DNA of 64,000 bases, taken from positions 10,974,001 through 11,038,000 of the forward strand of contig NW_024704751.1 in NCBI RefSeq assembly GCF_018977255.1, given 5' to 3'. The position numbers were made by a program, and so were the translations under genes. The notes beneath the pieces were generated by a model. The model did not search any database, was not told the DNA's origin, and saw nothing but the letters and a program-made list of their open reading frames with translations. This DNA is from Callorhinchus milii. Lineage: Eukaryota. Below are positions 13,757 to 16,111 of the stretch, one piece after another; the stretch's first letter is position 1, and each line of letters opens with the position of its first letter.

Positions 13757-16111
13757 CAATACTCTGCTGGACTATGTCTGGTTTGTAGGAGACCTCCAGG
13801 TCAGGCAAGTGCTTCTGGAGCTTCAAACATTTTAATTAGAATGTTACTTAAAAATATAACGTTTTGTATTTGATGTAGCACTTTTAATATGCCTTCCTCC
13901 ACAAAATATACAGTCAATTCACTTCCAAGTGTGTCCCATGAAGTGCTTTGAGATGTCTCTGAGGCGTGATAAGGCGCCATATCAAATGCAAGGGTTATTA
14001 TTACATGTGCATCTATTACCGATCCACCAATCAAGGTTTGGATTAGAGAAGCACAAGACAAGGCATTTTTCAAATAAAGGGGTGTGAAGACAAACTGCTC
14101 ACCTCCCCCATTAGCTCTGCGTGTACCTTGGACACACCATAGATGGTCTGAGGCCTCTGCACACACAGGTCAGGAGCAGGATTCCTGGGAGAGCTCGGGC
14201 CAAAAGCTCCGATGGTGCTGGCGACAAAGAGACGCACAGAGTTTTCCAAAGCAATACCGAGCACATTGTGCAAACCTGGGGAGAAATGGCAAAGAGATAC
14301 ATCAAACCACTGGCTAGTCTCTAAATAACCCAGAAAAAGATATACGGGCACACGTTTGTATTAGTACTTTTATACCTATGTCTGGACACCAGATAATACC
14401 CAAGAAGGACAATAATTGTTCACATTTATCACCATTGAGGCATTGACTTGCTAAACTTCTAATGGGAGATCTCTATTGTGCGGTCACATTTATAGCTCGA
14501 GGCGGGTAAAAAAGTAACTGCTCCAGACGGTCGCCTCCTTTGCCTCAATGCTGGCTCTAGCTGTATCTTAACGTATCTTAGTGTCCAGCAGAGCACTGTT
14601 CTACCCTTAACCAGATGAGATGTTTAAAAAAAATCTGAAACAATAAACAATCAGTCTCTCTCTGTGTTACTCACCAGTAATGTTGACACTGCGAGCTAAT
14701 GGTCCATTGGCTTCACTAACTGCACTATAATGGATCAGCCAGGTGATTTGGTTGTTAACCACTAACTCCCGTAGATTCTTGTAGTCGAGAACATCAGCAA
14801 AGACAAAGGGACCTGCAAATGACAATGAATAATTACACCGTTCACTGGTGCAGGAGGCAGGCCTGGGATTGTGTTGTAACAACGTCTGTCACTGTCACTC
14901 ACCGCTTTCAAAAATCACATCTGGTGGTCTCCGGATATCAGAAAGATTGACATTGTTCCTTCCAAAGGATTTTCTGTAGGACAGAAAAGAACGTCAAGGA
15001 GTTACGTCAGGAAGCGAGTCAGAAACAGAACAATAATAATCCTTGCATTTGGTACAGCACCTTATCACATTGTTGACCCGTCTCAAAGGGTTTCACCTGA
15101 TATACTGTAAAGTGAAGCAACTGTTTTGGTTGAGAACAGGAGATGGGTCTCAAATGAGTCAAGCTGTGCCCCAGTACCTGGACTCACCTAAGAAGCTGTG
15201 CAAGTCCGAAGCCCAGTTGCCTCAGACTACCTAAACCGTAACAGGCGACAAGAGAAGACACGAAAGATTAATCGCATTGCTTTAAATAACAATTCTATCG
15301 TGTGCAACAACAAGAAGTCTGAACAATCTTGATATTTGTCTCACATAGGACATGAATCATCATTGCGCTGGATAATATATAATCTTAAACCAATGAGAGT
15401 CAAGGATACATTCTCCCCCCAACCCCCCCAATTGATTAATGACTTCTTTTTCCAAGTGTAAAAGACCCAAAGCACATGGCTTAAGCAAACATGGGAAGCA
15501 ACGTGCAAATAAATGAGACAGACAGACCCTATGGACGGAGTATTACCAATTACTATACCTACACAGCAACAATGTTTTAGCAGTGATTGTACACTACAGA
15601 GGCACCAGAGGCCAATATACTCTATTCCCTAGGCTTGAGCAACATAAACTACACAATCCTTTACCACCCTCAAAATCCCACGAAACAATGAATAAAACGA
15701 TCAACAACAACTTGCATTTATATGGTGCCCTTCATGTGGGGCAGCATCTCAGAAAGCTTAACAGTGGCGGAGCCTGGCGCCAAGCTGGGGGAGAGGAAGG
15801 AGATGACCATAAGTATAGTCGAAGAGGAAGGTCAAGCAAGCATCAATCAAGTTACTATGTGACAGAGCATTAAATTGAAGGACGCTGACACTCAGTACGC
15901 AAGCAATCGCAGTGATGGGTGCCAGACCTGTGATCAGGATCCTGGGGTGCTGGCTGTTAGTGACCTCGGTGTGCCTGGCTCCCCTATCACCTTCGCTGAT
16001 CAGCTGTCGAGGTGACCAGCTCAGAGTCTGAACCCACCCTTGAGGTGACGCCCAGAGCCCACACGGGCAGCTCCAGCCTCTCAGCACAGATCGTCGCAGA
16101 CTTCCCTGCAT
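13757..16111 (-). pseudogene. TDH: L-threonine 3-dehydrogenase-like (SDR family; paralog of TDH), 3'-deleted probable pseudogene
   Basis: Exons 16111-15928, 15230-15188, 14973-14903, 14812-14675 and 14275-14103 splice in frame (...PRILITG...SDIRRPP...[14 protein letters not shown]...STIGAFGP...[15 protein letters not shown]). An orphan partial exon at about 13822-13757 reads LQKHLPDLEVSYKPDIVQQSI|gtgagt. The Rossmann motif reads TGSLRQLG rather than TGGLGQLG, four codons (LLSA) are missing, and the intervening and terminal coding segments were not found. Confidence 0.85.

Follow-up and report, generated by a model that had tools for sequence, protein, structure and literature searches.

The window, by which we mean the whole stretch of 64,000 nucleotides of elephant shark (Callorhinchus milii) DNA that was analyzed, carries the remains of a gene for threonine dehydrogenase (TDH), assigned below to the tdh2 paralogue, in a block with the order EIF3I-tdh2-MTMR9-like-FAM167 and with a Src-family kinase gene nearby (Table 1). 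EIF3I was identified by the exon preceding its last coding exon, which matches Pfam EIF3I. Upstream of this gene, at 3365-5111, lie two G+C-rich tandem low-complexity arrays with long proline-rich open frames. In the MTMR9-like gene, open exons could be matched to models from coelacanth and teleost; its human counterpart is a pseudogene. A run of 563 N (31568-32130) stands directly ahead of the first FAM167-like exon. The Src-family kinase we take to be LCK by synteny.

Table 1. Features of the tdh2 locus and its neighbors, with positions in the window
Feature	Position	Strand	Remarks
tdh2 coding exon 1, leader to ...HPRILIT	15928..16111	-	E 1e-9 vs Pristiophorus tdh2
tdh2 exon 2, glycine-rich NAD-binding motif	15188..15230	-	Ser for Gly at 15228-15226; Arg/Gly variant at 15222
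tdh2 exon 3, KSFGRNNVNLSDIRRPPDVIFES	14903..14973	-	Ile-to-Asn at conserved strand position
tdh2 exon 4	14675..14812	-	12-nt in-frame deletion, Gly-to-Ser, Val-to-Gly
tdh2 exon 5	14103..14275	-	catalytic Thr (STIG), YxxxK, SPRNP switch Arg; Asp-to-Gly, Pro-to-Ala
Exon-5 donor read-through	14070..14102	-	10 codons, then TGA; predicted product 213 residues
SINE-like repeat 3' fragment, in intron 5 remnant	13890..14003	+	
Large-deletion junction (approximate)	13821..13830	-	intron 5 remnant abuts last third of exon 7
Orphan exon 7 tail, 64 nt, GT donor	13757..13820	-	aligns to shark tdh2 residues 311-331
Expected site of last tdh2 exon	12457..13756		none recognisable; EIF3I mRNA contig covers interval
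EIF3I last coding exon, tail to tail with tdh2	12373..12456	+	spliced joints
MTMR9-like gene, upstream of tdh2, same strand	20953..28908	-	
FAM167 exon	32936..33094	+	PF11652, E 1.5e-25
Src-family kinase exons	57973..59551	+	best matches HCK and LCK

As the original prediction had it, five TDH exons are present with GT/AG introns (eight intact splice dinucleotides) and join into a stop-free frame of 609 nt, or 203 codons, in which the YGVSK motif is retained. By analogy, the leader encoded by exon 1 is a putative mitochondrial transit peptide. In tblastn searches against shark tdh2, exon 5 was matched with E 1e-28 and the orphan tail with E 6e-6, the latter also with E 6e-11 by its profile. 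The gap that separates exon 5 from the orphan tail, announced as about 280 bp and partly SINE, measures 282 bp (14102-13821) and includes the 3' fragment of a SINE, which matches the window at up to 25 overlapping places, with 83% identity to the best copy and a gapless alignment to another copy. At the deletion junction, MFEAPEAL can be read in another frame; it resembles the FMEAPA/EAPA stretch of exon 7 and may be due to chance or be a trace of the breakpoint.

The remnant already has a database entry. UniRef100_A0A4W3JEB9 (P0003), a C. milii protein of 148 residues and the best match of exon 5, derives from this locus and agrees with the window letter for letter over exons 2 (part) to 5, including the sequence HYSAV. 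It is filed as [quoted passage not shown] and carries no label as a tdh2 pseudogene. The entry begins past the NAD motif and ends with a 12-residue piece encoded at 13110-13075. As a true continuation of the gene this piece was rejected, as it shows no TDH similarity and no joint leading to it was among those listed; the 12-residue exon is probably spurious. AlphaFold models of the entry, whose first strand is absent from the record and which were made without an intact control, reached a mean pLDDT of 47 for the sequence alone and of 58 with a 51-row alignment, residues 99-148 staying below 50 in the latter.

The relationship of the gene was determined with a maximum-likelihood tree of 173 columns that included 52 reference proteins. 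The window gene was placed as sister to four shark tdh2 proteins, those of Pristiophorus (P0004), Heptranchias (P0121), Carcharodon (P0046), and Cetorhinus (P0123), with a support of 95.5/100. The tdh2 clade as a whole was supported with 89.1/99, and tdh1 of C. milii falls outside of it. The window copy and the shark tdh2 proteins differ at 24-29 of 148 core residues and have the diagnostic motifs LGFGLA, RPQTIY, and EVSYKPD in common. They also have the MTMR9-like neighbor in common, as does tdh2 of coelacanth and ray-finned fishes. The shark proteins are full-length (374-388 residues) and contain GGLGQLG and a 7-residue loop; from the window copy, about 143 of 375 codons are missing, and its loop is shortened by a deletion. 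The C. milii tdh1 protein is full-length (375 residues; P0141, P0138) and unchanged at the conserved core columns.

The duplicate is not a new one but the old tdh2 paralogue, a name that is in use for bony fishes and coelacanth. Fused gene models document the adjacency of MTMR9 and TDH for tdh2 in coelacanth (P0022) and a teleost (P0107), and in a rodent model (P0063) MTMR9 adjoins tdh1; the wider gene order at the tdh2 locus of other species presumably matches the MTMR9-like/FAM167/Src-family kinase arrangement as well. From the paired gene order and the position of the lamprey sequences, which were set as the root of the tree and lie outside both clades, we infer that the tdh1 and tdh2 blocks arose in the early vertebrate genome duplications. 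The remnant has kept its introns and stands at the orthologous place. The suggestion that a TDH duplicate was lost in a lineage-specific manner is supported, and the 12-nt and 3' deletions are common to the samples described below.

To locate the rest of the gene, nine segment profiles were built from 52 intact enzymes. The segment with YPGIIS and GGGTTDY and the coding region following it had been described as missing, and indeed exon 6 and most of exon 7 are absent from the window. The profile of exon 8 likewise found no match in the 64 kb, in line with the reported lack of a last exon containing SWP. When the six frames of the 64-kb window were scanned, the scores for exon 6, for the front part of exon 7, and for exon 8 stayed at 5 bits or less, and neither a motif scan nor tblastn with nine proteins revealed a match to these parts within the window. 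The sensitivity of the profiles is illustrated by the recovery of the 15-codon exon 2 at E 0.0014; exon 3 and the orphan tail were recovered, too.

The consequences for the protein can be read from known structures. As given in the available portion of the report on T. cruzi TDH (PMC11910319), the cofactor domain of this enzyme is composed of N1 (residues 13-183), N2, and N3; C1-C3, starting at residue 184, form the catalytic domain; Loop-1 (residues 190-194) gates the active site; and the catalytic residues include Thr130 and Tyr155. Mapped from the alignment range, the retained exons reach as far as the counterpart of residue 167 and thus stop inside N1. Like the TDH structures from mouse (4yr9) and T. 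cruzi (8gil/8gjb), the remnant has the Rossmann N-terminal segment, the catalytic Thr, Tyr, and Lys (YxxxK), and the switch Arg. Unlike these SDR-type enzymes, it lacks the catalytic segments together with Loop-1 and the N3 WP motif. Altogether, the end of N1, C1, N2, N3, C3, Loop-1/GGGTT, and the WP motif are lost, and C2 is partly left in the orphan tail. An active enzyme is not expected when the end of N1, C1, N2, N3, and C3 are lost and only part of C2 is left, and the remnant is therefore predicted from its sequence not to encode a working threonine dehydrogenase.

As an alternative to a true deletion, we considered an assembly collapse between two similar SINE copies, whereby the assembly would have dropped exon 6 and the front part of exon 7, and the gene would be more complete than it looks. 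Out of 18 runs containing the stretch, 4 from 3 studies were compared over 11500-18700. X1 and X3 are DNA-like, and X5 and X9 were classified as RNA-like by guess. The break in exon 7 was found in all three runs covering it, which confirms the 3' deletion: contigs of X1, X3, and X5 bridge the junction without a gap, from beyond the orphan tail to 13923. The interval of the last exon is contiguous in an X5 contig (12373-13923), and an X9 contig extends over 12373-13491. Given that the 12-nt deletion of exon 4 and the orphan break recur in 3/3 covering runs, a misassembly confined to the window is unlikely for these two lesions. A collapse could be placed at 13924-13966, inside the SINE, which is bridged by no contig of the 4 runs, and the displaced exons were sought within the 64-kb window only. 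However, the exon 7 break lies ~70 bp outside the SINE, in sequence bridged in three runs, the X5 contig runs through the last-exon interval without an exon 8, and the SINE fragment aligns gapless to another copy. Nor would a collapse rescue the gene, as the interruption of exon 7 and the lack of exon 8 would remain. We regard a collapse as very unlikely. At 13155, in the 3' UTR of EIF3I, all four compared runs contain 7 extra bases, which reflects either a private deletion in the window or an assembly slip.

Of the small lesions, the 12-nt in-frame deletion that yields HYSAV proved to be real and common to all three covering runs: X1 and X3 align to the window there without a gap, and for X5, which also covers the site, no indel was among those listed. 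It is located just past the HY codons, at about 14726-14721. The loop from the HY strand to the G of GEAN comprises 7 residues in 231 of 232 fetched proteins and 3 in A0A4W3JEB9. The deleted LLSA loop presumably contains a substrate-binding Ser. The second lesion, the change of the NAD-binding motif to TGSLRQLG, is present in the window, but its two exchanges differ in their distribution. The Gly-to-Ser exchange, at an x position of GxxGxxG, is common to the samples, whereas GLG was found in 197/197 fetched proteins. The Arg, which breaks the pattern, is private to the window; X1, X3, and X5, that is, all three covering runs, have Gly at 15222 and an intact GxxGxxG pattern. Since contigs keep a single allele, the Arg may represent a minority allele, or else an error. 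The original count of three independent lesions, with a destroyed NAD motif among them, is thus not supported. At 15217-15222 the window differs from X1, X3, and X5 by two bases that are 5 bases apart, which points either to a rare haplotype or to a local sequencing error.

The degree of relaxation was estimated from 98 of the 152 core columns that are at least 95% conserved in 52 intact enzymes. The remnant shows 10 substitutions and 2 deleted residues at these columns, compared to a median of 1 and a maximum of 5 changes when each intact enzyme was left out in turn. The radical changes at invariant core positions are I89N, G140S, V144G, D160G, and P172A. The overall protein rate is mildly raised, with ratios of window-only to shark-only changes between 17:4 and 15:14 in eight comparisons. 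In a rough neutral simulation (400 runs per setting, with assumed indel rates), 0.03-0.05 substitutions per site were required to change 5-9 conserved residues. The frame and splice sites survived in 12-25% of the simulated runs with 5 changed residues, in 2.5-14% with 7, and in 3-8% with 9, figures to be read with the fact that the remnant was picked for looking intact. Synonymous changes made up 3 of 6 coding variants between samples; within the enzyme exons they made up 3 of 4 (P about 0.08), where a share of 0.30 would be expected, all of these being small numbers.

Taking 0.04 substitutions per site, a rate of 2.2e-10 per site per year, as assumed in the available part of PMC4422223, corresponds to about 180 million years, and the mammalian rate, given there as ten times faster, to about 18 million years. 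Both estimates fall within the age of the holocephalan-shark split, put at roughly 421 million years ago in the accessible text of PMC3692497. The gene had been described as recently lost and caught in the act of dying. This view is not supported, for the surplus of changes at conserved sites equals about 0.03-0.05 neutral substitutions per site. The 10 substitutions at 98 conserved columns, against a median of 1 and a maximum of 5, suggest instead that the constraint on tdh2 has been relaxed over a long time; the deletions themselves are undated. A plausible history is a long relaxation followed by the deletions, with the open frame being partly a matter of luck and partly the reason why the locus was noticed.

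We then considered transcription of the remnant. As a control, joints at the introns of EIF3I were seen in both X5 and X9. The matches listed contained no spliced joint for tdh2. In X5, contigs cover 13974-14276 and 14247-14702, and a contig with exon 4 starts from 14673; the contig ends 14276/14247 and 14702/14673 form exact 30-base overlaps, as expected from splicing of exon 4 to exon 5, and the DNA-like runs X1 and X3 cross both sites unbroken. From the overlaps together with the unbroken DNA-like contigs, we infer that intron 4 is spliced in one of the two RNA-like runs, X5 being RNA by guess; exon 4 is uncovered in X9. Splice forks at exons 1 and 2 were not found in the X5 contigs.

On the basis of an AG at 13822-13821, it had been proposed that exon 5 could be spliced in frame to the orphan exon. 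This AG exists and is in frame, but the splice from 14103 to 13820 received no support: there is no fork at the exon-5 donor, and the X5 and X9 contigs are unbroken, as judged from contigs, which drop rare forms. In addition, the candidate acceptor reads AAG and has a pyrimidine fraction of 0.53, compared to 0.63-0.89 for the four real acceptors. The remnant is likely still weakly transcribed, and its transcript likely reads past exon 5 into the stop after 10 codons. As candidate poly(A) signals of the minus strand, ATTAAA occurs at 13888 and 13836.

The 3' part of the locus is covered from the opposite side. The EIF3I mRNA contig of X5 passes the stop codon by about 1.5 kb and extends over the orphan exon to 13923, and AATAAA occurs on the EIF3I (plus) strand at 12830 and 14073. 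Both the position of the orphan exon under this contig and the two AATAAA sites would fit the idea that the remnant has been kept for a noncoding role, either as part of a long 3' UTR of EIF3I or as an antisense partner. We consider such a role highly unlikely: the EIF3I contig of X9 ends at 13491, the contigs are strandless, overlap by itself is no sign of function, and a noncoding role leaves the open frame across exons 1-5 unexplained.

In our view, these data are best explained by tdh2 of the elephant shark being an unprocessed pseudogene at its normal chromosomal place that is dispensable through the intact tdh1 gene, a reading to which we assign a probability of about 0.82. Tdh1 likely covers for tdh2 in this species. 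According to the proposed sequence of events, the supply of activity by tdh1 would have led to the relaxation of selection on tdh2 long ago. At least two deletions would have followed, one from intron 5 into exon 7 and one of the last exon. Residual transcription would yield an RNA in which intron 4 is spliced and the exon-5 donor is read through, with a stop after 10 codons, and the 3' UTR of EIF3I would now extend over the 3' remnant of tdh2.

Speaking against a pseudogene are the only mildly raised overall protein rate, the share of synonymous variants in the enzyme exons, and the open five-exon frame with its 8 splice dinucleotides, which was kept in 2.5-14% of the simulated runs and is thus less decayed than the neutral model would predict. 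The open frame would also support a truncated pseudoenzyme, namely a mitochondrial protein of ~213 residues that comprises most of N1, lacks the catalytic domain, and is selected in frame; perhaps it could pair with TDH1 via the dimer surface of N1 and dampen TDH1 activity. Agreeing with such a protein are the synonymous nature of 3/4 core variants, the GxxGxxG pattern that is intact in all three covering runs, the retention of Thr and YxxxK, and the splicing of intron 4 implied in X5. Moreover, the T. cruzi TDH dimer is built through N1 segments, as stated in the available portion of PMC11910319. On the other hand, the core has undergone the radical changes listed above, the loop deletion is unique among the fetched proteins, and the frame stops inside N1. 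The X5 contigs over exons 1 and 2 show no splice forks and hence give no sign of a full spliced message, and the only database model at the locus is the 148-residue P0003, with no matching full one. A pseudoenzyme of this kind therefore appears very unlikely to us, and the pseudogene remains the preferred reading.

A related case is known from humans. As far as the available parts of the respective reports describe it, human TDH is an unprocessed pseudogene with a defect at exon 6, whose expression leads to a truncated chain (PMC555945, PMC11910319, PMC11795093). Human TDH, the orthologue of tdh1, and elephant shark tdh2 are thus both unprocessed and broken around the exon-6 region. They differ in that the human lineage lost tdh1 through a splice-acceptor change and with it the activity, whereas the elephant shark lost tdh2 through deletions and kept tdh1, and with it likely the activity.

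The distribution of tdh2 was examined in several protein searches, one of which listed the best 120 of 8000 scored candidates (206-657 residues). Among the matches listed, tdh1 was named for 23 cartilaginous fishes and a full-length tdh2 for 4 of the 23; the matches listed contained no full-length tdh2 from 9 rays and skates, 5 carpet sharks, 3 carcharhiniforms, and Heterodontus, and no protein from chimaeras other than C. milii. In a wider tree of 190 out of 267 fetched proteins, chosen for a length of at least 300 residues and the presence of the NAD motif, the tdh2 clade comprised 49 proteins, and those with a name included no tetrapod, ray, carpet shark, catshark, or horn shark. These patterns are only a hint at repeated loss of tdh2 in cartilaginous fishes, as an unannotated gene would look like a lost one. 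On the usual shark tree, up to five losses in cartilaginous fishes would be required. That tdh2 was lost up to five times in these fishes and once in tetrapods, while the elephant shark copy is a surviving intermediate, translated as a dead Rossmann half and selected for regulating TDH1 by pairing, we judge highly improbable. A published report of the loss of elephant shark tdh2 was not found in our search, outside of which supplements and subscription journals lay.

As a pseudogene, tdh2 represents the ordinary loss of a redundant duplicate and adds a case to the loss of genes for threonine catabolism, for which human TDH is the comparison. The annotation of A0A4W3JEB9 can be corrected to that of a tdh2 pseudogene locus, and tdh2 offers a possible system of repeated loss that is directly testable in existing genomes. 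If the truncated frame were under selection, the locus would represent a rare pseudoenzyme born from a dying duplicate. Elsewhere in the window, two LINE-like fragments (18794-19384 and 59558-59920), presumably of the L2/CR1 type, contain open frames resembling the C terminus of reverse transcriptase.
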